A stretch of DNA of 64,000 nt. Source: Blastocatellia bacterium (GTDB lineage: Bacteria > Acidobacteriota > Blastocatellia > UBA7656). The notes below the pieces were generated by a model. It had not been told where the DNA came from. It saw only the letters and a list, made by a program, of their open reading frames with translations, and ran no database searches. The stretch lies in contig DATDOV010000079.1 in NCBI GenBank assembly GCA_035293105.1, positions 101,574 to 165,573 on the forward strand, read 5' to 3'. Each line of letters begins with the position of its first letter. The stretch's first letter is position 1. Shown here in pieces: positions 32,137-47,157 of the stretch. A program made the translations under genes and the position numbers.

Positions 32137-33057
32137 ATGAAAAGCCTTGGTTCAGCCGGCAGCCTACCTTTGTTTGATGAATCTGCAGACGGCAACCCTC
32201 TTGAACATCAATCCGAGAAGCCCGAAAAGACTTCGCCCTTTAGCGACCTTGATCTGAATCGCTGGCGCGAATATGAAGACATCGTTACCGACTCGCTGTG
32301 GCTCATACCAGAACGGGACCGGACTGGCGCGCATCTCGCGGACTATCACGGAAACTTTGTTCCTCAAATCCCCTATCAGGCGATGCGGCGGTTTACGAAA
32401 CGCGGAGATGTTGTGCTCGACGCATTCTTGGGTTCCGGCACGACCCTCATCGAATGTCGCAGACTAGGGCGACACGGAATCGGCGTTGAGCTTAAGCCAG
32501 AGCTTGCAAAGCAAGCAGCCGACCGTATCGCGAGCCAAGGCAATCGCTACCAGGTCAAGACAGAGGTGCTGACGTCAGATAGTTGTGATCCCGTAAAGAC
32601 TCCTGGAGTCATTTCGCAGAGTCTTGAAACCATCGGCAAGGATTCAGTGCAGCTTGCAATACTTCATCCTCCGTATCATTCAATAATTAGGTTCTCTGAT
32701 CGTGCGGATGATCTGTCTAATTGCCCTACGGTTGACGTGTTTCAAAAAACGTTTGGCCGAGCGGTTGATGTAGTGACTCCATTCCTCGACATAGGCCGCT
32801 ATCTGGTCTTGGTCATCGGTGATATGTATGCTGGCAGCGAATGGATTCCTCTTGGATTTCGGTGCATGAACGAGATAATGGAGCGCGGGTACACTCTGAA
32901 GAGCATCGTCGTTAAAGATATGCAAGGAAATCGGGCTAAACGAAATCTGGAGAACATCTGGCGCTATCGCGCGCTAGTCGGCGGCTTCTACATCTTCAAG
33001 CACGAGTACGTCATGTTTTTCAGGAAGGGCAGAACGAATGGCCGAACTGCCATTTAG
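32137..33057 (+). CDS. N6-adenine or N4-cytosine DNA methyltransferase (R-M)
   Basis: Motif I VVLDAFLGSGTT; motif IV LHPPY (D/N/S-PP-Y variant). Confidence 0.8.
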   Translation: MKSLGSAGSLPLFDESADGNPLEHQSEKPEKTSPFSDLDLNRWREYEDIVTDSLWLIPERDRTGAHLADYHGNFVPQIPYQAMRRFTKRGDVVLDAFLGSGTTLIECRRLGRHGIGVELKPELAKQAADRIASQGNRYQVKTEVLTSDSCDPVKTPGVISQSLETIGKDSVQLAILHPPYHSIIRFSDRADDLSNCPTVDVFQKTFGRAVDVVTPFLDIGRYLVLVIGDMYAGSEWIPLGFRCMNEIMERGYTLKSIVVKDMQGNRAKRNLENIWRYRALVGGFYIFKHEYVMFFRKGRTNGRTAI

Positions 33058-35820: not shown

Positions 35821-36852
35821 ATGAGCAACAAAACCGATTCAACGGCTGTTGACGATCTCGTCGACGGCCAGTGGCTTGAAGATATCGATGCGGCGCTGCC
35901 TCAGGCGGTCGCCGAGGCCACAGTAGATGGACGGCTGCCCGCGAAAGCTCAACACCTGAAAGTTCAGGTTGGGTTTCGCGAATTGCCGGACGGGCACGAG
36001 GTCAAGTTCAAGGCCTCACTTACGAATACACTGCTGGAAGTGTTCGAATGGGCAGCGCAGGAACTCGGGAAACCTCTACTACCTCCCGCCAGCAACCAGC
36101 CGCTCGATCTATTGCGCTGTCGGGAGCGACACGGCGACGGCTGGAGCGAGCCTATCACAGGCCTCGACCGGCCGCTCTGGCTCGTGTTGGTTGAAAGCTG
36201 CTCTCGACATTTCGGAATCGAATATGTGCTGGCTGTTAAGATCAACACGAAGTGGGCCGTAGCACCGTCCGCAAAAATGACGCCGCGCGAGCTGCTCACT
36301 AGCTTTGGGTTTGATCCCTCTCAATTCAGCCTGTACAAGCCCGATAGCACGGAGCCGCTGCCGGCGGACACGCCGATCCCTCTTCATCGAGGAGAGAGGT
36401 TTGAAGCGCAGAAGGACGGGAAGTATGGAGCGTCGGTGATGGCAGAGCGTCCGGCGCGCGGCTCACAGACGATCGACGATGATCTGGAAGGAATAAGGGA
36501 GGCGGGTATCGACGCCCGCCTCCTCGACTCCAACGGACAAAAGTACGCCGAGGTGAAGGGAATAGCGGTACCGTCGCCTCCTTGGTCTCTGGACAGGCTC
36601 ACACTGCTGTTCGCTATTCCGGCTACGTACCCGACAGGCGGGCTCGACGCGTTCTACATCGAGTTGCCCGTTAGCCACGCTAGCGGTTCCGTTCCGTACC
36701 AATCTCAGACCGCGCAGATCGATGGCAGATCGTGGGGGCTGATCTCATGGCACTATCCGACCGGGCGGCCCTGGAACCCGTCGCATGACGATCTTTCTAC
36801 TCATATCGAGCATTGTCGTGGAGCATTGATGAGGCGTGGGGTGACGCAGTGA
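35821..36852 (+). CDS. multi-ubiquitin (tandem beta-grasp) domains fused to prokaryotic E2-like (UBC-fold) domain
   Basis: Two Ub-like repeats (HLKVQVGFRELPDGHEVKFKASLTNTLLEVFEWAAQELG; LAVKINTKWAVAPSAKMTPRELLTSFGFDPSQFSLYKPDS...IPLHRGERFEA). C-terminal E2-like region (...LLFAIPATYPTGGLDAFYIELPV...ISWHYPTGRPWNPSHDDL...). Confidence 0.55.
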   Translation: MSNKTDSTAVDDLVDGQWLEDIDAALPQAVAEATVDGRLPAKAQHLKVQVGFRELPDGHEVKFKASLTNTLLEVFEWAAQELGKPLLPPASNQPLDLLRCRERHGDGWSEPITGLDRPLWLVLVESCSRHFGIEYVLAVKINTKWAVAPSAKMTPRELLTSFGFDPSQFSLYKPDSTEPLPADTPIPLHRGERFEAQKDGKYGASVMAERPARGSQTIDDDLEGIREAGIDARLLDSNGQKYAEVKGIAVPSPPWSLDRLTLLFAIPATYPTGGLDAFYIELPVSHASGSVPYQSQTAQIDGRSWGLISWHYPTGRPWNPSHDDLSTHIEHCRGALMRRGVTQ

Positions 36853-36854
36853 AA

Positions 36855-38246
36855 ATGCGAATGACCGAACACCACTACCATGAGGTAAAGCGACTTACGT
36901 CTCCTTCCTTCTTGGATGGCATCCGGTTTCCTCCCGAGACAGGTTGCATCGTTTTAGTCGGGCGGAATAATCATCCAACGTATCCGTCAGTCGTAGTGGC
37001 CGATGTGCTGGCGCCCGAGGACGGAGAGTTGATTGAGCGAGAGAGTGATGGTCTCGTCTTCGCGAGCAAGTATTTGCGGCGCGCTCTGTTTCGATTGCGT
37101 GAGAAAGGGCTGGCGGGCTTCCTCACAGTCCACACCCACCCGTTCTCGGACACGCGTGTGAACTTTTCTCCCTATGATGACGCGAATGATCCCTCGCTGA
37201 TGGCAAATCTGTACGAGCTTGAGCCCCACGGCATTTTCGGCAGCATCGTGATGGGCAAAAGATCGGCGAGAGCTCGATTGTGGAATCCGGACGGAGATGG
37301 CTACCGCACACTCGAACCGATGATCATCGTCGGTGAGCGACTGCAATTCTTCAACGCTAATGGTGCCGAGGCCGAGGCGGAACCACAGGCAGCGGAGATC
37401 TTCGACCGCGGCTTGTCGATCACAGGTAGCGGCGCGTTAGCGCGACTCGCCTGCATGCGTGTTGGTCTGATCGGCAGCAGCGGAACCGGCTCTATTATGG
37501 CCGAATTGCTGATGCGCGCCGGTGTTGGCGAGATACTGCTTTTTGAGCCTGACTATGTGGAAGAACCCAACCTGAACCGGATGCTCCATTCCCGGCAGCG
37601 CGACGCGGAAGCTCGTGTAGGAAAGGCGTCCCGGCTGGCTGAAGCTCTTGCCGAGGCTGGTATGCCCACTCAGATCACGGTCGCCTCGGGCGGTGACATA
37701 CGCCGCGAGGAGGTAGCACTTGAGCTACGAGGTTGCGATTTGGTGATTGGTTGTGTTGATCGAGACTGGCCGCGCCTAATACTTTGCGAACTAGCTTATC
37801 AATACTTGATTCCGTACATAGACCTGGGAACAGAGATCGGTTTCGATGGGATTGAGATTCAGAGCCTCGATTCTCGCGTTTCGTATGTTGCGCCTGGTCG
37901 TCCTTGTCTTCTGTGTTCTGGCGTGGTGTCAACCGAGCGCCTTAGGCTGGAAGCACTAGAAGACAGCGAGCGAGACAGAGTTATCGCAATGGGTTACTCG
38001 GAAGACATTAGGCTCATCGCGCCTGCGGTCATGGATCTAAACATGCGCGCTGCCTCTTATGCGATGCTCGTTGTACGTCATCTCCTCCAGCCGTTCCTCG
38101 ATAGGCCGCTGCCGACTCATATCAAAGAATCAATCACTAACTTCAGTGTTCGACGAGTGACCAGTACCCAGAATTCGGACTGTCACGTCTGTGATGGTTC
38201 GAGGCTTGGAGTCGGAGACGCGCGCCGTTTGTCCACGGCTCGTTGA
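36855..38246 (+). CDS. JAB/MPN metalloprotease domain fused to E1-like ThiF/MoeB adenylyltransferase
   Basis: N-terminal JAMM-like motif LAGFLTVHTHPFSD...S..D. C-terminal Rossmann GLIGSSGTGSIMAELLMRAGVGEILLFEPDYVEEPNLNRM with CLLCSG and CHVCDG zinc pairs. Start immediately after the upstream stop. Confidence 0.7.
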   Translation: MRMTEHHYHEVKRLTSPSFLDGIRFPPETGCIVLVGRNNHPTYPSVVVADVLAPEDGELIERESDGLVFASKYLRRALFRLREKGLAGFLTVHTHPFSDTRVNFSPYDDANDPSLMANLYELEPHGIFGSIVMGKRSARARLWNPDGDGYRTLEPMIIVGERLQFFNANGAEAEAEPQAAEIFDRGLSITGSGALARLACMRVGLIGSSGTGSIMAELLMRAGVGEILLFEPDYVEEPNLNRMLHSRQRDAEARVGKASRLAEALAEAGMPTQITVASGGDIRREEVALELRGCDLVIGCVDRDWPRLILCELAYQYLIPYIDLGTEIGFDGIEIQSLDSRVSYVAPGRPCLLCSGVVSTERLRLEALEDSERDRVIAMGYSEDIRLIAPAVMDLNMRAASYAMLVVRHLLQPFLDRPLPTHIKESITNFSVRRVTSTQNSDCHVCDGSRLGVGDARRLSTAR

Positions 38247-39946: not shown

Positions 39947-40074
39947 AGCAAATAGACGATCATTATTCACTGGTTGAAACTGGTTGATTATCCACTGACC
40001 CTGGCAGATAATCCGCCACTTGACCGGTGCATGAGAAGCTAGAGGCAGACCGACGTTGCTCTAAACTAGGGGAT

Positions 40075-41088
40075 ATGGAAAACGAACCGCTGGGGCATTC
40101 TGAGATCATCCTCTACCAAACCGAGGACAAGCGTACTCGGATCGAGGTCAGGCTTGAGGACGAGACTGTCTGGCTCAGTCAAAGCCAGATGGCCGAGTTG
40201 TTCCAGACCACCAAACAAAACATCAGCCTCCACGTTAGGAACATCTTCGCTGAGCACGAATTGCAGGAGGACCAAGTTGTCAAGGAATACTTGACGACTG
40301 CAGCCGACGGCAAGAAATACGCAACCGGCCACTACAACCTCGATGTCATCATCTCCGTAGGTTATCGCGTCAAGTCCCACCGCGGCACTCAGTTCCGCAT
40401 CTGGGCGACTCAACGCCTGAGGGAGTACCTGATCAAAGGCTTCGCGCTGGACGATGAGCGGCTCAAAGAAGGCGGCACGAAGAACACTTACTTCGATGAA
40501 CTGCTGGCCCGGATCAGGGACATCCGCGCCTCCGAGAAGAACTTCTACCGCAAGGTCCTGGACATCTACGCGACAAGCATCGACTACGACCTACACTCGG
40601 ATGTCTCTTACGACTTCTTTGCGATCGTTCAAAACAAGATGCACTGGGCGGCGCACGGCCACACCGCAGCCGAGTTGATCGCCGAACGGGCCGACGCCGA
40701 TAAGCCCAATATGGGATTAACCTCCTGGAAAGACCCGAAGGTGCGAAAGTCGGACGTGACCGTCGCAAAGAACTACCTCAACGCCGACGAGATCGAAATC
40801 CTGAATCTGATCGTGAGTCAGTACCTGGACTTCGCCGAGCTTCAGGCCAGAATGAAGAAGGCGATGTACATGCGCGACTGGGTGCGCAAGCTGGACGATT
40901 TTCTGAGAGTGAATGAGCGGGAAATATTGAAGGACGCAGGTAAGATCTCGCATCAGCTTGCTCAGCAGTTGGCCGAAGCTGAGTACGACAAGTTCGAAAA
41001 GAAGCGGTTGGCGGCGGAATCCGAAGCCCCTAACAAGGACTTCGAGGAAGCGGTGAAGACACTCACCTCGCGAAAGCGGAAGAGGTAG
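40075..41088 (+). CDS. RhuM-family (Fic/DOC-related) virulence/defence-associated protein
   Basis: MENEPLGHSEIILYQTEDKRTRIEVRLEDETVWLSQSQMAELFQTTKQNISLHVRNIF... characteristic RhuM N-terminus. Confidence 0.8.
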   Translation: MENEPLGHSEIILYQTEDKRTRIEVRLEDETVWLSQSQMAELFQTTKQNISLHVRNIFAEHELQEDQVVKEYLTTAADGKKYATGHYNLDVIISVGYRVKSHRGTQFRIWATQRLREYLIKGFALDDERLKEGGTKNTYFDELLARIRDIRASEKNFYRKVLDIYATSIDYDLHSDVSYDFFAIVQNKMHWAAHGHTAAELIAERADADKPNMGLTSWKDPKVRKSDVTVAKNYLNADEIEILNLIVSQYLDFAELQARMKKAMYMRDWVRKLDDFLRVNEREILKDAGKISHQLAQQLAEAEYDKFEKKRLAAESEAPNKDFEEAVKTLTSRKRKR

Positions 41089-41384: not shown

Positions 41385-41717
41385 TTATGAAGTCAAACCG
41401 CGAGGACTCATAGTAGTCCTCGATAGTCTCGTGCGCCGTGAATGATCCGATGAACGAAGATCGTTTGCTCCTCGCAAGTGTAAAAAGATCAGGTAATCCT
41501 GAACGACCAAATAGCGATAACCGAGATCAACCAGCGACGCATCACCAGATACGCGTCCCAGGTATGGGTTCAACGCCAACAGCCTCAGGTTCTTCTCGAT
41601 TCTCTGCGCAAGTGCTTCGGCGGCTTCCGGTCTTTGAGCCGCAATGTAGGTGACGATCTCAGTGAAGTCGTCCTCCGCTGCCCTCAAGAGCCGGACCGTG
41701 TGCTTACGCCGCTTCAC
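41385..41717 (-). pseudogene. RelE/ParE-family toxin with frameshift at a T5 run
   Basis: ...LGYRYLVVQDYLIF then the frame drifts. The +1 frame gives the canonical YTCEEQTIFVHRIIHGARDY tail. Confidence 0.6.
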
Positions 41718-41976
41718 GGATTCTCTTTCGCAGATCTTTCATCACTTGTGAGACCGTCCGGCCTCGGTCGCCACATGCTCGCTGAGCTTGCGCCACCGCT
41801 AGCTTGCTGAAGAGTTCGACTTTGAGTTGAAGCTTGCTGTAATGAGCCATCGACATAACAACCATGTCGCCCTCACCGTTCCTCGTGATGAAGATCGGCT
41901 CATCGATAGTCTCGGCTAGATCAGAGATCTGGTTCGCTTTGTTCCGCAAGTCGGAAATGGGTTTTATGACGGGCAT
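41704..41976 (-). CDS. Phd/YefM-family antitoxin
   Basis: MPVIKPISDLRNKANQISDLAETIDEPIFITRNGEGDMVVMSMAHYSKL. Confidence 0.7.
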   Translation of the reverse strand: MPVIKPISDLRNKANQISDLAETIDEPIFITRNGEGDMVVMSMAHYSKLQLKVELFSKLAVAQAQRACGDRGRTVSQVMKDLRKRIREAA

Positions 41977-42045
41977 CTTCAATCTCCTTCTACCGCGCTG
42001 CAAAATTATATCACTTAAAGATAAAGGAAAGGGGCCAAGGCGATT

Positions 42046-43554
42046 TTATAGATACTCGCGTTCGGCCTTGCGAATCTTCCGGAAGCGCTCAAACGCTGCG
42101 CGCTCGTCCTCAAGCCCAATAAACGTCTTCAGCGTCGAGCCCCGGAACGTGTGCGCGAACATCCTCCCCGCGTTCCTTAACACAAACAGCGGATCGTGAG
42201 CGAAAGCGGCCGGCATGTGATGAAGCTTCATCCACCGCTCTTCCTTCCATCGCATGAATTCCGCTTCTTCGGCTGAGACGTGCTCGGTCCTGACCACGGC
42301 GGTCGTGCCGTCGTACTCCTGGAGGTTCTCGTTGATGATCAAGCCGCGGTCGCGGAAGTCCTTCGTCATCGGCGTGCGTGGATAAGGCGTCGGGTGCTGT
42401 ATGTAAGGCCAGTCGATGTAGCGGCGGGCGAAATCCAGATTAGCCGTGATCGACTCGCGCGTGTCGTCGGGGTTGCCTACGATCAAGCCGCCTACGACGT
42501 ACATCTTGTTGCGATGCAGGTAGTCGATTGCTTTCATGGTCGCGTTGCCCGCCCGCCCCCCATCGCCATTGCCGCGGGCGAGGTTCTTCGATTTGGCTTT
42601 CAGGAATTGCAGATCGTCTTCGAGGATGTTCTCGATGCCCAGAAACACGTAACGGAATCCGGCACGGCGCATCAGCGGCGCGAGCGTCTCCCCATGATTG
42701 GCTATCGCCGAGGTCATCCCCTGCACGAAATAGTCGAGATCGTTCAGGCCCGCGTCGATGATCGCCTGGCAGAGCGCTTCGAACCGCCGCACGTTGAGCG
42801 TGATGTTGTCGTCGACGATGAAGATCGTGCGCGCGCCGTGATCACGAGCGTCTCGAATGTCGGCCAGCACGCGGTCGAACGAGTAAGTGAAGAAGTTGCG
42901 GCCGCGCATCTCGATTATCGAGCAGAAGCTGCAATCGAACGTGCAGCCGCGCGAGGTTTCGATAACATCGACCTGTCTCCCAAGCAGCGTGTAGCCTGTG
43001 AGCACGCGTGCGCTGCGGTTTTGCAGCTTGATCTCGCCGTTGTCGAGCCCGTTCACGCCGCGGTCGGGGTTGTGATAGAAGCGGTCGCCGCTCCGGTACG
43101 ATAAGCCGGGAATATGATCGAAGCCGCTCTCGTTTTCGATCGCCTGCAGCAGTTCGCGGAACGTGATCTCGCCTTCGCCGCGCACGATGAAGTCCACCAC
43201 GCCCGAGGAATTGTCGGCGTAGGCTTCGATATCGAGGCTCGGGTCGTAGCCGCCTACGGCGACTCGCACCGATGGACGAAGCCGGCGGACGAGATCGATT
43301 GCCTTCTTTGCCGTTTTGCGCTGGAAGCTCATCACTGACAGGCCGACGACATCGGGTTCCATCTCACGCACCAATCGCTCGACGGTCGCTCGCACGTGTC
43401 GTTGGACCAGCACGAGATCGGCGACCGAGACCTTGTGATGTGAATCGACGTTGCCAGCGAGCGACGTGAGCGCGCCATTAGGCATTCTGATGGCGAGCGA
43501 TGGCATGTGCTCGAATGAATCGGGCATCGAGAGGAGCAGAATGTTCAATGGCAC
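42046..43554 (-). CDS. B12-binding domain radical SAM protein
   Basis: N-terminal B12-binding Rossmann-like region. CTFDCSFC (CxxxCxxC) radical SAM cluster motif. Confidence 0.8.
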   Translation of the reverse strand: MPLNILLLSMPDSFEHMPSLAIRMPNGALTSLAGNVDSHHKVSVADLVLVQRHVRATVERLVREMEPDVVGLSVMSFQRKTAKKAIDLVRRLRPSVRVAVGGYDPSLDIEAYADNSSGVVDFIVRGEGEITFRELLQAIENESGFDHIPGLSYRSGDRFYHNPDRGVNGLDNGEIKLQNRSARVLTGYTLLGRQVDVIETSRGCTFDCSFCSIIEMRGRNFFTYSFDRVLADIRDARDHGARTIFIVDDNITLNVRRFEALCQAIIDAGLNDLDYFVQGMTSAIANHGETLAPLMRRAGFRYVFLGIENILEDDLQFLKAKSKNLARGNGDGGRAGNATMKAIDYLHRNKMYVVGGLIVGNPDDTRESITANLDFARRYIDWPYIQHPTPYPRTPMTKDFRDRGLIINENLQEYDGTTAVVRTEHVSAEEAEFMRWKEERWMKLHHMPAAFAHDPLFVLRNAGRMFAHTFRGSTLKTFIGLEDERAAFERFRKIRKAEREYL

Positions 43555-43724: not shown

Positions 43725-43756
43725 TTGACATTGAAGTTGGGTACAGGGTGTAGCAT
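43725..43756 (+). promoter_or_regulatory. MerR-type promoter (TTGACA, 20-bp spacer, TAGCAT)
   Basis: TTGACA at 43725-30 and TAGCAT at 43751-56 with an over-long 20-bp spacer containing GGGTACAGGG, immediately upstream of the merR-like gene. Confidence 0.5.
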
Positions 43757-43778
43757 CTTATTGCGGAAGGACCTGCGG

Positions 43779-44213
43779 ATGAATGCAATGACCATCGGCG
43801 AGCTGGCCAGGCGCGGCGGGGTTAACCCGGAAACCATACGTTACTACGAACGTGAAGGGTTGCTGCCAAAGCCGCGCCGCCTGCCGTCGGGTTATCGCGT
43901 CTTCTCTCGGGATGACGCGCGGCGCGTGCGCTTCATCAAGCAAGCGCAGGAGCTGGGCTTCTCGCTCAAGGAGATCAAGGAACTGCTCGCCTTGCGCATC
44001 CATCCGGGTACGACTTGCGCCGACGTGCGGGAGCGTACGACAGCCAAGATTGCCGACATTGACGAAAGGCTGCGTCGGCTTCGCGCCATGAAAAAGGCCC
44101 TGGTGCGACTGACTGCGGCTTGCTCCGGACAGGGGGTAGTGAGTGACTGCCCGATATTGGAGAGCCTTGATTCGGAAAAGGAGCGTTGTGGTGAAGAAGA
44201 AACGCAAGATTGA
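43779..44213 (+). CDS. merR: MerR-family metal-responsive regulator with Hg-MerR-like Cys triad
   Basis: HTH MTIGELARRGGVNPETIRYYEREGLL. Cys at positions 80, 115 and 124 (spacing 35/9, as in Tn501 MerR C82/C117/C126). Confidence 0.7.
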   Translation: MNAMTIGELARRGGVNPETIRYYEREGLLPKPRRLPSGYRVFSRDDARRVRFIKQAQELGFSLKEIKELLALRIHPGTTCADVRERTTAKIADIDERLRRLRAMKKALVRLTAACSGQGVVSDCPILESLDSEKERCGEEETQD

Positions 44214-44460
44214 GATCTTCAGCGCGGGATGCGCGGTGTGCGAGAAGACTATTGAACTGGTCAAGAAGCTCGCCTGCAAGTCCTGTGACATTGCCGTGCT
44301 GGATATGCGGCAGAAGCGTGTCGCAACAAAAGCCAAAAAGTACGGGGTACAAAGCCTACCGGCTATAGCCATTAACGGGAAGCTGGCCGGCTGCTGCGCC
44401 GGGAGGGGTGTGGACGAGAACGTCTTAAGGACCGCCGGTATCGGGGTGCGCATGACATAG
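44188..44460 (+). CDS. small thioredoxin-fold protein (CxxC)
   Basis: AGGAG + GTG start. KIEIFSAGCAVCEKTIELVKK...YGVQSLPAIAINGKL. Confidence 0.55.
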   Translation: MVKKKRKIEIFSAGCAVCEKTIELVKKLACKSCDIAVLDMRQKRVATKAKKYGVQSLPAIAINGKLAGCCAGRGVDENVLRTAGIGVRMT

Positions 44461-44474
44461 TGACGCGGGAGCCA

Positions 44475-45191
44475 ATGGACCCATTTGACTACTTCGAGAG
44501 CGTCTCGGCTTCCATCGAGCATTACCCGCTGGTGGCGCTGTTGGTGGCGGCGGTCGGAGGTTTTCTCTCGACCACGACCTGACCTTGTACACTCCCTGCG
44601 GGCGTAGGGGTTGTCGGATACGTCGGGTCACAAGTTGAAGGCGCACCCTCCGAGCGGCGTCAGCGGCGCGGAGTACTCATCTCCTTCTCATTCTTCGCCG
44701 GCGTTGTGTTGAGCCTCGTCGTGCTCGGCATCATGGCAACGCTCCTTGGCCGGCTGCTGACGCGGTGGAGCGCGGCATTCGCCATCGGCGCAGCGAGCTT
44801 CTCGTTCGCGGCGGGAATGGCTGCGATCCTCGGCCCGTGGATTCGCCGCCGCGTTCCCAATCCCGTGATCAGAAAGCGTGGTGGCATAGCCGGCTCGTTC
44901 TTCTACGGCCTCTGCTTCAGCGTCGCGACCGTCACCACATCCGCCGGACCTCTGTTGTTGTTGCTCACCATAGCTGCGGCAATCGGGCGCCCGGCTTACG
45001 GCGCGGCGCTCTCGCTTTCTTACGCGATCGGGCGAGGATTGCCGTTTCTGTTGCTTGGATTGTTCGCCGGGACGATCGGGGCTTGGCTCGCGCGTGTGGA
45101 CCGCGCCCGGCGCATTGCGGAGGTCGTGAGCGGCCTCGCACTCCTCGGGCTGGGAGTCTACTTCTTTCGACTCGCGCTGACTGTCGTGTGA
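44475..45191 (+). pseudogene. ccdA: CcdA/DsbD-family thiol-disulfide transporter with in-frame TGA
   Basis: MDPFDYFESVSASIEHYPLVALLVAAVGGFLSTTT-[TGA 44580-82]-PCTLPAGVGVVGY... The stop sits where the family has Ser (LSPC). The rest of the protein continues in the same frame. Confidence 0.6.
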
Positions 45192-45212
45192 GCTTCTGGC
45201 GGGAGGCCGCCG

Positions 45213-45569
45213 CTATTCTTTCAGAGTTGCCTTATAACCCAGGTTGGTGATCGCCTCGACGATTTTGTCGGTTGACGTACGGGACGGATCGTACTCGACG
45301 CTTGCTTCGCGTCGCTCGTAGCTCACCTCGGCAGAAACCACGCCGGGCGTCCGCTTCAGCATGGCCTTAATGCCTTTCGCGCAGCTCGTGCAGGACATTC
45401 CTTCGACCGCGATCAACACGCGCTCATTTTTTGCGGCGGCGGCGTGCGAACTGGGTGGGCTGCCGTTAGGAACAGGGCGCTCGACGGCCAGAGGCGCAGT
45501 CGCGACCAGGACCACACACAGTGTGGTTAGAACAGCCGGGATTCCGACCCGCTGACGCAGCCGCATCAT
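45213..45569 (-). CDS. periplasmic heavy-metal-associated (MerP-like) protein
   Basis: Signal peptide. HMA motif VEGMSCTSCAKGIKAML. Confidence 0.7.
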   Translation of the reverse strand: MMRLRQRVGIPAVLTTLCVVLVATAPLAVERPVPNGSPPSSHAAAAKNERVLIAVEGMSCTSCAKGIKAMLKRTPGVVSAEVSYERREASVEYDPSRTSTDKIVEAITNLGYKATLKE

Positions 45570-45719
45570 TCTCGCATCCTCCCATGCCGGAATACGCCCA
45601 GAGCTGGCGACATCAAGCTGCACACTAACTCCGGGCCGATGATCGGTCAAGCGACTACAGGCTCTGAGGTGCGCGTCAGGTTTTCGCGGTGAGCCGCTCA
45701 AACGGAACTCCATAACCAC

Positions 45720-45990
45720 CTCATCAGAGGTGGGCTGCCTGATGTTCTAGCCTACAACGCACCACGACTGCTCATACCCCCTCGCAGGGGTGGGTTCTTG
45801 ATGCTGCGGCCCTAGCGGCCCTTGCGCACGCGCCTCTCTGGTCGGAGTCGCTCATGGATGCCTCGAACATCAGGGGACCCACCTCTCACACGAGGTGGGT
45901 ATGGGACAAAAGCAGAGGTAAGATCGCGATCTTCTTCGTGTAGGCTGGAGCATCACCGACCCACCTCTCACGAGGTGGGTATGCGCGAAA
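45720..45990. repeat. cluster of four GGTGGG-containing hairpins (REP-like)
   Basis: catcagAGGTGGGctgcctgatg; cgcagGGGTGGGttcttgatgctgcg; gacccacctctcacacgaggtgggtatg; gacccacctctcacgaggtgggtatg. Confidence 0.4.
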
Positions 45991-46077
45991 ACGTGACGCG
46001 CACCTCAGGCTCTGACTCGCTGGCCATCTGCATCGTAGCACCTCCTTGAAGCGGACCGGCGCAATTGCTCGAATGCC

Positions 46078-47157
46078 TTGGATGTGATAGTAAGAGACTT
46101 CAATGACTATCACCGCGAGGTTGAAGTGGTAAAGAGGATTGTCGGCACGCTCGTTGTTGTAGCGCTTCTGTCTGTGTGCAGCTTGTCGCAGACATCGTCG
46201 CAGGCGCCGAATGCCCCGCCCCCCGAAACGCTCGACCAGAAGCTCGGCCCGGACGACGGCGCGGCGCTCGCCATACTGTTCGGCGCCAATCTGCGAGGTA
46301 ACCTCTTCCCCTGCGACTGAAATCATCCCCGCGGGGGGCTGGCGCGGCGCGTCGGCTACGTCGATGGTTTCAAAGCGAAGTTCAAACAGACGCCCGTCCT
46401 GCAAGTCGAGGCCGGAAACTTCTGGTATGACAACACCGGCTACATGGCCGACGTGATGCTCCAGAACGAGCAAGTCGCGATCGCTTACAGCCAGTGGCCG
46501 ATTGATGTCATCAACCTCGGCCGGTTCGACTTGATCTTCGCCCGCAAGCTCCTCACCCGCCAGGGACTCGAGCAGCGAACGGCCGCCGTTCCAATGATCA
46601 AGAACTTGATATCGGCAAACGGTACATTCGAAACTCCCTCGGCCGCGCCGCCCGCGTTCATCATCAAAGAAATCACCGGGCCGCGAATCAAAGGCAAGCT
46701 CGACAAGGTCCGCGTAGGCTTCATCGGCGTGACTGCTCCCGCCAAGATCTCGGGCGGCGTCGATGCAACGGTGACCGACATGTTCGAAGCGGTGCGCAAG
46801 GTCGCCCCCGACGTGCGTAAGCAGTGCGACATACTGGTGATCCTCGCTCACTCGGAGTATGAGCCGGCGCTGCGGCTCGCGCGAGAGAATCCCGAAGCCG
46901 ACATCGTCATTTCCGGCAACGCCGAAGGAAACTACGGGCCGCAACGGATCGGGAAGACCTTGGTGCTGGTTGCCGCGCCCGGAAACACCCAGGAAGGCGA
47001 CCTTCGTGTGTACATCGGCGAGGATGGAAGCTTCAGCTATAAGTTCCGCTCGCCCGACCTGGACGCCGAGGTACCCTCCGATCCCGAGGCGATGGCTTAT
47101 GCGGAGGCCGCTCGCAATGAGCTTCATCGCTTCCGTTCGAGCGGGATGCGCCGCTGA
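46078..47157 (+). pseudogene. secreted metallophosphoesterase (5'-nucleotidase N-domain)-like protein with in-frame TGA
   Basis: Signal peptide. LAILFGANLRGNLFPCD-[TGA 46318-20]-NHPRGGLARR... continues in frame to 47157. The stop sits at the Gly of the GNH[DE] motif. Motif I is degenerate. Confidence 0.5.

Follow-up and report, generated by a model that had tools for sequence, protein, structure and literature searches.

A contig of a Blastocatellia bacterium (GenBank assembly GCA_035293105.1, contig DATDOV010000079.1) harbors, within the 64,000-nucleotide stretch analyzed here (from now on the window), a small gene cluster composed of a gene for a MerR-family regulator, a gene for a thioredoxin-like protein and a gene for a membrane protein of the CcdA/DsbD type, followed by a convergent gene for an exported, MerP-like protein with an HMA domain. 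The ccdA-like gene contains an in-frame TGA, and comparison with its relatives leaves us highly confident that the gene encodes a selenoprotein, the TGA being a codon for selenocysteine (Sec). The order of the genes, the alternation of TGA with Cys codons, a hairpin resembling a selenocysteine insertion sequence (SECIS) behind the TGA and the loss of the Cys that CcdA carries in transmembrane helix 4 (TM4) can be read from the aligned sequences, and comparison among relatives shows that the partnership with HMA proteins, with MerR-family regulators and with P1B-type ATPases is conserved. More tentatively, and with clearly less than even confidence, we propose an unrecognised selenoprotein family in which Sec in a transmembrane helix would pass Hg(II) or another soft metal to or from the exported HMA protein.

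The TGA codon and the hairpin behind it

A tblastn search with the read-through protein, in which one genome was taken per species, gave 43 loci, 39 of which could be evaluated in frame. The matches cross the TGA and span residues 1-237 in the related genomes. The codon at its position is TGA in 31 of these 39 loci and TGC or TGT in the other eight; the TGA forms come from Pyrinomonadaceae, Blastocatellia, Chloracidobacterium, Thermoanaerobaculia, Gemmatimonadaceae and Gemmatimonadales, and the motif around the position reads ST(S/T)T-[U/C]-P-C-T-L-P. Among protein homologues, the full-length ones (approximately 238 aa, 50-66% identity) have Cys at the TGA position throughout (...STST-C-P-C-TLPAG...; n = 48), and the closest ones (64-80% identity) are all N-terminally truncated calls of 171-195 aa. 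An earlier note on this DNA had stated that the TGA stands where the family has Ser. This holds only for the distant canonical CcdA (S-P-C in PDB entry 5VKV), whereas in the protein's own subfamily Cys is invariant (CPC), so that the TGA forms a Sec/Cys pair and does not replace a Ser.

A reassigned genetic code is excluded because TGA is also the ordinary stop codon of merR and of the ccdA-like gene itself. A sequencing error or a pseudogene at 44580-44582 was considered and ruled out by the conservation of the TGA across genomes. The least probable of the readings weighed here is that the TGA is a real stop, be it by decay, by error or in a split gene, which would leave a peptide of 35 aa and/or an N-truncated protein with five helices. 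In its favor, gene callers annotate the downstream part alone (161 aa in homologue P0001, 171-195 aa in others), and one related locus (L018) is frameshifted upstream of the position. On the other side, 31 independent species-level assemblies, drawn from two phyla, share this TGA and the others have Cys, the called downstream start codons lie at inconsistent positions, and the truncated product would be without the invariant CPC motif. The 35 codons 5' of the TGA have a ratio of nonsynonymous to synonymous changes (pN/pS) of 0.37 in frame versus 0.96 and 2.1 in the other two frames, as is characteristic of codons under purifying selection.

Directly 3' of the TGA, every TGA form (n = 32 including the window) has a hairpin of the form UCCCUGC-GGGC-GUAGGGR, with a 7-bp stem and a 4-nt loop (GGGC or AGGU), that begins 11 nt after the UGA and has its loop 17 nt after it. 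In the alignment of the 32 sequences, 31 of them distinct, 217 of 217 pair cells are paired. Pair 18-27 joins the third base of a Pro codon to that of a Val codon and shows covariation that is synonymous (UA 24, CG 6, GC 1). The free energy of folding lies between -9.1 and -11.6 kcal/mol. The codons that make up the hairpin are chosen accordingly and the bias is limited to the hairpin: Gly is encoded by GGG in 32/32 sequences versus 22% elsewhere in the same genes, Pro by CCT in 25/32 versus 15%, and Val by GTA in 24 of the 31 sequences (of 32) that encode Val versus 6.9%. The model for bacterial SECIS elements specifies a stem of 4-16 bp, a loop of 3-9 nt with G in one of its first two positions, a distance of 16-37 nt from the UGA and a free energy of -7.5 kcal/mol or lower (PMC13188914); the hairpin lies within all four limits of that model. 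In five of the eight Cys forms the hairpin cannot be formed. In the remaining three, all from Gemmatimonas (L035, L038 and L041), a hairpin UGCCGAC-CAGC/GAGC-GUCGGCA of about -11 kcal/mol stands at the SECIS position; it is possibly a relic of a recent switch from Sec to Cys.

The window was also scanned for other in-frame TGAs flanked by coding-like sequence and accompanied by a SECIS-like hairpin. The scan flagged a gene for a UshA-like metallophosphoesterase that lies beyond the HMA gene, approximately 900 bp past the stop codon of the ccdA-like gene. The open reading frames (ORFs) 46078-46320 and 46444-47157 are a single frame that is broken only by a TGA in the motif F-P-C-D-[TGA]-N-H. 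Twelve full-length UshA-like homologues have Cys at this position (C-D-C), which gives a TGA/Cys pair 1.1 kb from the ccdA-like gene, and the hairpin that follows has 9 bp and a GGC loop 25 nt after the UGA. The best NCBIfam match of the protein is the 'UshA-like (seleno)protein' NF041198 (UshA_like_PCGU; E = 3.3e-21), with a score under the cut-off because only the N-terminal half of the 519-aa model is matched. The gene is absent from the related loci of the ccdA-like family. We regard it as a candidate for a second selenoprotein gene and, since two TGA/Cys pairs with SECIS-like hairpins occur within 2 kb, Sec decoding in this genome would be the economical reading of both.

The UGA could instead be read as another amino acid, for example as Cys by a tRNA-Sec-like tRNA-Cys with the anticodon UCA or by another opal suppressor, and the product would then be the CPC form. 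PMC5389517 reports such tRNA-Cys(UCA) species and unusual allo-tRNAs, some of them from Acidobacteria, that might act as suppressors. In keeping with this reading, the window and the fetched loci showed no Sec machinery: a Pfam scan of 40 window ORFs gave no sel genes, neither the window nor the 42 fetched loci contained tRNA genes of any kind, and an Rfam search gave no match. We nevertheless consider suppression very improbable. A plain suppressor would need no hairpin, and one of SECIS geometry is kept by compensatory synonymous changes in the TGA forms only; the neighboring TGA coincides with the Sec of a curated (seleno)protein family; and the selC* genes came from anaerobes of other phyla (PMC5389517).

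Annotation is affected as well. Gene callers cut the ccdA-like gene at the UGA in dozens of metagenome clusters and in no fewer than 31 species-level genomes, the GenBank and JGI entries of its relatives are truncated fragments, and the fragments miscalled as 'CcdA/thiol:disulfide interchange' proteins are without the only invariant Cys motif of the family.

The membrane protein, its partners and its regulator

The read-through protein belongs to Pfam family DsbD_TM (PF02683; 38.3 bits versus a cut-off of 27.1) and matches CcdA from Thermus thermophilus (5VKV) in sequence with E = 0.0014. In the alignment with 5VKV, C38 of the motif U36-P-C38 falls on the canonical Cys of TM1 and the TGA on the canonical Ser (S-P-C), and the T-P-C of TM4 is replaced by T-T-S, the second catalytic Cys thereby being Ser156. 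The residues C36, P37, C38 and S156 are invariant in 49 rows (48 homologues and the window protein, the latter with Cys modelled at the TGA). As judged from these alignments, the family is one of CcdA-fold proteins in which the thiol pair is shifted to one helix (C/U-P-C), and its members are not canonical CcdAs, which require one Cys in TM1 and one in TM4. Canonical CcdA electron transfer was ruled out since the TM4 Cys is missing. The charge distribution suggests six helices with both termini outside, the motif lying roughly halfway along TM1. A Foldseek search with an AlphaFold2 model of the Cys homologue P0003, a model of low confidence, gave 5VKV as sole significant match (probability 1.00, TM-score approximately 0.5). 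A profile search of 1.84 billion representatives found 23 CPC-type clusters among the best 150. The only ORF in which a CcdA is fused to an ATPase is probably chimeric and was rejected as uninformative about function.

The thioredoxin-like protein is a member of Thioredoxin_3 (PF13192; 39.1 bits versus a cut-off of 24.8). It has an N-terminal CxxC (CAVC), in addition CKSC and CC, and has kept the cis-Pro region; being without a signal peptide, it is cytoplasmic. Its best NCBIfam match is the MTH895/ArsE family (TIGR00412), with 30.4 bits under the cut-off of 62. The HMA protein (Pfam HMA, 61.7 bits) starts with a basic N-terminus and a hydrophobic segment and is likely exported via this N-terminal signal or anchor. 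Its best NCBIfam match is the UxxU_metal_bind (seleno)protein (79.3 bits, cut-off 95), and it scores 54.4 bits against MerP (TIGR02052, cut-off 92.55). Across the related loci the HMA and thioredoxin-like neighbors have Cys only and no Sec.

The neighborhoods were counted in 42 related loci. In 33 of them an HMA gene, usually convergent and with an N-terminal signal, is no more than 600 bp away from the ccdA-like gene, in 31 there is a MerR-family gene within 3.5 kb, and in 23 a gene for a P1B-type ATPase directly upstream on the same strand. A Thioredoxin_3 gene is found within 700 bp upstream in six loci (at 4-138 nt in five, at 531 nt in L012), and a bona fide MerA, scoring above the cut-off of TIGR02053, is encoded within 6 kb in two (L022 and L032). 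The complete layout of the window, merR-trx-ccdA with the HMA gene facing it, recurs in L005, L008, L010 and L014. L011 and L012 have merR-trx-ccdA with no HMA match downstream, the contig of L011 ending approximately 440 bp past ccdA. The ATPases of the related loci carry N-terminal HMA domains, some of them also a C-terminal one, and have YPC instead of CPC at the metal site within the membrane (noted for L001 745-3261, L020 3364-5760, L033 and L035). NCBIfam assigns them no more narrowly than to the generic heavy-metal ATPase family. An attempt to name the metal from these ATPases was abandoned as ambiguous, since they passed the generic heavy-metal cut-off and those of both the Cu and the Cd subfamilies.

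More distant CPC-type CcdA proteins, also paired with an exported HMA protein, are encoded on plasmids of Adhaeribacter and Hymenobacter, where the pairs adjoin a metal-sensing repressor and a P-type ATPase within metal-resistance islands. The constant unit is thus the CPC/UPC membrane protein together with the exported HMA protein, set among metal-resistance genes of which the regulators and pumps are variable. On Bacteroidota plasmids, genes for a RefSeq 'GDCCVxC domain-containing (seleno)protein' (L044 2387-2593 and L045 11158-11406) stand beside merTP; they share metal islands with the CPC-type CcdA/HMA pair and are another Sec-capable family in metal loci.

The window MerR aligns without gaps to the Hg-bound MerR from Bacillus megaterium (4UA1; E = 4.6e-29). 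C80, C115 and C124 correspond to C79, C114 and C123 of this protein, the loop between the last two having 8 residues in both, and to C82, C117 and C126 of the Tn501 MerR (5CRL), which bears out the assignment of these residues to the Hg-binding Cys in the earlier note; CueR can be aligned only with a gap. The further claim that the spacing is diagnostic of mercury had to be given up. The lead sensor PbrR (5GPE), which is also among the PDB matches of the window MerR, has the same three-Cys spacing, so that the pattern does not single out Hg. The best NCBIfam model, MerR (TIGR02051), scores 135.2 bits and thus under its cut-off of 150.85; the models for ZntR, CueR and CadR/PbrR score slightly lower, all of them under their cut-offs. 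In 9 of 16 MerR orthologues R, S, T or A stands in place of C80, and several of these nine carry CC at 115-116 instead. The safe statement is that the window MerR would have a tri-thiolate site for a soft metal, be it Hg, Pb or Cd. The label 'Hg-type' is plausible, as the best PDB and NCBIfam matches are MerRs and orthologues have a mer-like operator. Against its use in plain form speak the replacement of C80 in the closest orthologues and the pairing of the sensor, in most relatives, with an efflux ATPase (23/42 loci) and not with MerA (2/42).

In many of the related loci (among them L002, L003, L006, L009 and L036) a second MerR-family regulator, 36-44% identical and absent from the window, is encoded divergently from the HMA gene. 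Its promoter contains a CTCTAG-N4-CTAGAG dyad, which we take to be PbrR/CadR-like, and in these loci the HMA partner may be under a different metal sensor.

The promoter in front of merR has a spacer of exactly 20 nt, as the earlier note had counted and a recount confirmed. The description of this promoter as textbook holds only in part: the right half-site of the operator, GTACAG, is intact, and the left one, TTGAAG, is degenerate and matches the consensus CTGTAC in 3/6 positions. Upstream of orthologous merR genes the arrangement TTGAC-N-dyad-GGTG-TAnnnT is found, likewise with a spacer of 20 nt. The orthologue operators read C(C/T)GTAC-N4-GTAC(G/A)G, followed by the -10 element, and those from Thermoanaerobaculia are almost identical to merO of Tn21, CCGTAC-ATGA-GTACGG, a sequence that was confirmed between merR and merT of plasmid R100. 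A scan for sigma-70 promoters with a spacing of 16-18 nt called none at 43725-43756, which was to be expected since the spacer is over-long.

All four genes were found within a few bases of where the earlier note had placed them, and MerR_1/MerR-DNA-bind, Thioredoxin_3, DsbD_TM and HMA all exceed the Pfam gathering scores in the respective proteins. The 3' end of merR is overlapped by the thioredoxin-like gene by approximately 23 nt, and the stop codon of the latter is separated from the start of the ccdA-like gene by a gap of 14 nt. Since this leaves no space for promoters of their own, the three genes are very likely co-transcribed, as had been proposed; a terminator-like hairpin follows the ccdA-like gene. 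Gene content and promoter layout agree with the notion of a MerR-type, metal-responsive operon. The remark that merA and merT are missing also stood up: the active-site motif of MerA was found in no frame of the 64-kb window, and merT was not found there.

Metal ions or electrons as cargo

The mechanism that we favor is a ligand-exchange relay like that of MerT and MerP, built on a CcdA scaffold. Binding of the metal to the MerR sensor at the over-spaced promoter would start transcription of merR, the thioredoxin-like gene and the ccdA-like gene, and the SECIS hairpin would direct the decoding of the UGA as Sec, giving a U-P-C site in the middle of TM1. The selenolate/thiolate pair of this site would bind and hand off Hg(II), possibly Pb(II), Cd(II) or Cu(I). 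Outside, the exported MerP-like HMA protein would exchange the metal with it through its CxxC; inside, the Cys-rich thioredoxin-fold protein would do so or, in relatives, the site would work alongside a P1B ATPase. Taken as a whole, with metal-inducible operon, Sec and metal hand-off, this is to us the best explanation, and we judge it slightly more probable than its negation; for the hand-off at U-P-C taken by itself our confidence is a shade under even. What we infer within this mechanism is that metal is bound at all, which metal it is and in which direction it would move.

The earlier note had seen in the ccdA-like protein a conduit for reductant that keeps the exported metal-binding protein reduced. 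By the canonical route this fails: the TM4 Cys needed for the TM1-TM4 disulfide is an invariant Ser, and no TlpA/ResA-like gene for a periplasmic acceptor of the thioredoxin fold is present in the operon or nearby. What could be kept of the proposal is a relay via U-P-C to the HMA protein. The thioredoxin-fold protein would reduce a selenenylsulfide between U36 and C38, and the pair, alternately facing the periplasm, would keep the CxxC of the HMA protein reduced, which would therefore be able to bind metal in an oxidising envelope. The CcdA fold, the Pfam membership and the retention of the canonical TM1 Cys, the one attacked by thioredoxin in DsbD, are in line with such a conduit, as is the finding that most catalogued selenoproteins bear redox motifs, e.g., UxxC or CxU. 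It would be sensible beside an efflux ATPase that delivers metal to a periplasmic thiol protein, and the DsbD-like ScsB reportedly supports copper tolerance. The dedicated Thioredoxin_3 gene, 14 nt upstream in the window, also counts for it, but such a gene stands upstream of ccdA in just 6 of the 42 related loci. The proposed acceptor has the ferredoxin-like fold of HMA domains, whereas known acceptors of CcdA and DsbD have a thioredoxin or Ig fold, and the selenolate would probably be prone to poisoning by the same metals to which the operon responds. We rate electron transfer by this route at well under even odds, but take it seriously as a rival to metal hand-off.

Metal hand-off is ranked above a redox relay because the canonical TM1-TM4 pair is gone and because the sole extracytoplasmic partner nearby has the HMA fold; proteins of this fold are known to team up with Cys pairs of membrane proteins in metal relays and are not known to do so with CcdA/DsbD. 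Further reasons are that a change from C-x-C to U-x-C has a precedent in the SO_0444 family and one from CC to CU in MerT-like proteins, and that soft metals, as inducers, would make a selenolate the weak point of a redox relay. Finally, the DsbD family has been counted among the metal and solute exporters of the LysE superfamily, and roles in mercury and copper resistance have been ascribed to it (PMC4608589); ArsG, which the ccdA-like protein matches below threshold as the thioredoxin-like protein does the MTH895/ArsE family, is annotated as a permease.

Several points weigh against the metal relay with Sec. The genes selA, selB, selC and selD were not found in the 64-kb window or the fetched loci. 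The AlphaFold2 model of P0003 is poor (predicted local distance difference test, pLDDT, 60.5; predicted TM-score, pTM, 0.51). A thioredoxin-fold neighbor and a C/U-x-C motif are equally expected of a redox relay; CPC motifs of the Mia40 type have redox activity, as do most known selenoproteins. An importer would be futile beside an efflux ATPase as found in the relatives. With respect to the metal, the closest MerR orthologues replace C80 by Arg, Ser or Thr and have Cys-Cys at 115-116, no metal-specific NCBIfam model of the MerR family passes its cut-off, and the relatives from Bacteroidota adjoin a gene annotated as 'metal-sensing transcriptional repressor', which is taken to be CsoR-like.

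Among known systems, CcdA (5VKV) shares with the ccdA-like protein the six-helix fold, the P-C-x-x-P motif of TM1 with its Cys, and an adjoining gene for a cytoplasmic thioredoxin-fold protein. It differs in that here the TM4 Cys is an invariant Ser, a new Cys or Sec stands at i-2 relative to the Cys of TM1, an exported HMA protein takes the place of a thioredoxin-fold partner, control is by a metal sensor of the MerR type, and most members in two phyla have Sec. The MerT/MerP system of Tn21 and Tn501 has in common with the operon the MerR promoter with over-long spacer, the GTAC-N4-GTAC operator (in the orthologues), a periplasmic GMxCxxC HMA protein and a membrane protein with a Cys pair in its first helix; in some relatives of MerT, the 'CU' selenoproteins, Sec replaces one Cys of this pair. 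However, MerT has three transmembrane helices and is related to the six-helix CcdA-fold protein neither in sequence nor in fold, merA is missing from the window and present in only 2 of 42 related loci, and the HMA gene is convergent and lies outside the operon.

The closest precedent for the exchange of C-P-C and U-P-C in a membrane protein of metal context is the SO_0444 family of Cu/Zn efflux transporters (NF033936), in some members of which CSC is replaced by USC (bioRxiv 10.1101/2022.07.06.499078; PMC13188914). The family is unrelated, and the role in metal transport of its Sec forms has itself been deduced indirectly. TsoB (NF045694), the only DsbD-related selenoprotein in the catalogue of 2026, is the best NCBIfam match of the ccdA-like protein (39.4 bits, cut-off 805), followed by ArsG (31.1 bits, cut-off 200). 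TsoB, however, is a rhodanese fusion of 572 aa from the Tso operon, its two Sec lying in a UxxxxU motif. To ArsE and ArsG the thioredoxin-like and the ccdA-like protein match over the full length, but with scores far under the cut-offs given above, and the regulators and partners differ. ArsG, which is DsbD_TM-like, is annotated as an efflux permease of organoarsenical resistance, indicating that such a fold can serve a thiophilic metalloid; we know of no CPC/UPC motif in ArsG. In the mer loci of Gordonia, Rhodococcus and Mycobacteroides a pair of a CcdA-like and a thioredoxin-like protein, annotated as 'mercury transporters' with CcdA and TrxA domains, has been listed (PMC12195606, Table 4). 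A plasmid search for mer-linked CcdA homologues from actinobacteria found none at E ≤ 1e-3, only four distant matches, from Bacteroidota and Methylobacterium. The actinobacterial proteins are therefore at best distantly related, and no Sec has been reported in them.

No model in NCBIfam release 20 recognises the ccdA-like protein. A table of 119 prokaryotic selenoprotein families published in 2026 contains no stand-alone DsbD_TM/CcdA family, only the rhodanese/DsbD fusion TsoB, and a link between CcdA and selenoproteins was not found in the literature searched. Within those limits, selenoprotein family and CcdA-scaffold variant are both undescribed, and the MerR-controlled metal setting in which they stand is a known one.

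If the proposal is true, the U-P-C motif would place Sec within the membrane, where few known selenoproteins have it, and Acidobacteriota and Gemmatimonadota would have Sec-containing proteins for the handling of metals. There would be a selenium-dependent heavy-metal transporter, switched by MerR, that is widespread in soil members of these two phyla and is missed by current annotation. A CcdA scaffold with the pair in one helix and an HMA protein as partner turns the choice between electrons and metal ions as cargo into a testable question; in the case of metal, the supply of selenium would be coupled to heavy-metal tolerance in soil.

Other features of the window

The positions of the features discussed are compiled in Table 1.

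Table 1. Features of the metal operon and its surroundings, numbered from the first nucleotide of the window
Feature	Position	Strand	Remarks
-35 element TTGACA	43725-43730	+	recounted on the sequence
Promoter spacer, 20 nt	43731-43750	+	recounted on the sequence
Operator dyad in the spacer	43731-43746	+	left half TTGAAG 43731-43736, 4-nt center, right half GTACAG 43741-43746
-10 element TAGCAT	43751-43756	+	read from the sequence
merR-family regulator gene, 144 aa	43779-44213	+	Pfam MerR_1, MerR-DNA-bind, MerR
Thioredoxin-like gene, approximately 90 aa	44188-44460	+	start GTG 44188 or 44191; Pfam Thioredoxin_3
ccdA-like gene, read through TGA, 238 codons	44475-45191	+	start ATG 44475; Pfam DsbD_TM
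In-frame TGA, predicted Sec codon	44580-44582	+	TGA/Cys comparison
SECIS-like hairpin UCCCUGC-GGGC-GUAGGGG	44593-44610	+	7 bp, 4-nt loop at 44600-44603
Terminator-like GC hairpin with T-rich tail	45197-45212	+	between the convergent ccdA-like and HMA genes
Exported MerP-like HMA protein gene, 118 aa	45213-45569	-	GMSCTSC; Pfam HMA
UshA-like metallophosphoesterase gene	46129-47157	+	outside the operon; TGA 46318-46320, hairpin 46337-46357

Upstream of merR, and divergent from it, lies a gene for a B12-binding radical SAM protein (42046-43554, minus strand) with no evident link to the operon. Further to the left the GC content falls to 53-58% between approximately 26000 and 42000, as compared with about 62%. 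This stretch contains genes for a DNA methylase (32137-33057), for Prok-E2_E and ThiF proteins (35821-38246; a ubiquitin-like or defence-type module), for a RhuM-family protein (40027-41088) and for a toxin-antitoxin pair of the ParE/Phd type (41385-42003). It is probably a genomic island, the metal operon standing at its right-hand edge.

Upstream of the HMA gene, inverted repeats are nested within the intergenic stretch 45650-46010. The 25-nt arms at 45664-45688 and 45984-46008 are 96% complementary, and three more pairs of arms lie inside. Hairpin units of the form CCCACCTC-N5/6-GAGGTGGG occur at 45877-45900, 45959-45980 and 45716-45734, and the 22-nt unit has no other copy in the window. 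The nest looks like a palindromic element of the MITE (miniature inverted-repeat transposable element) or REP (repetitive extragenic palindrome) kind.

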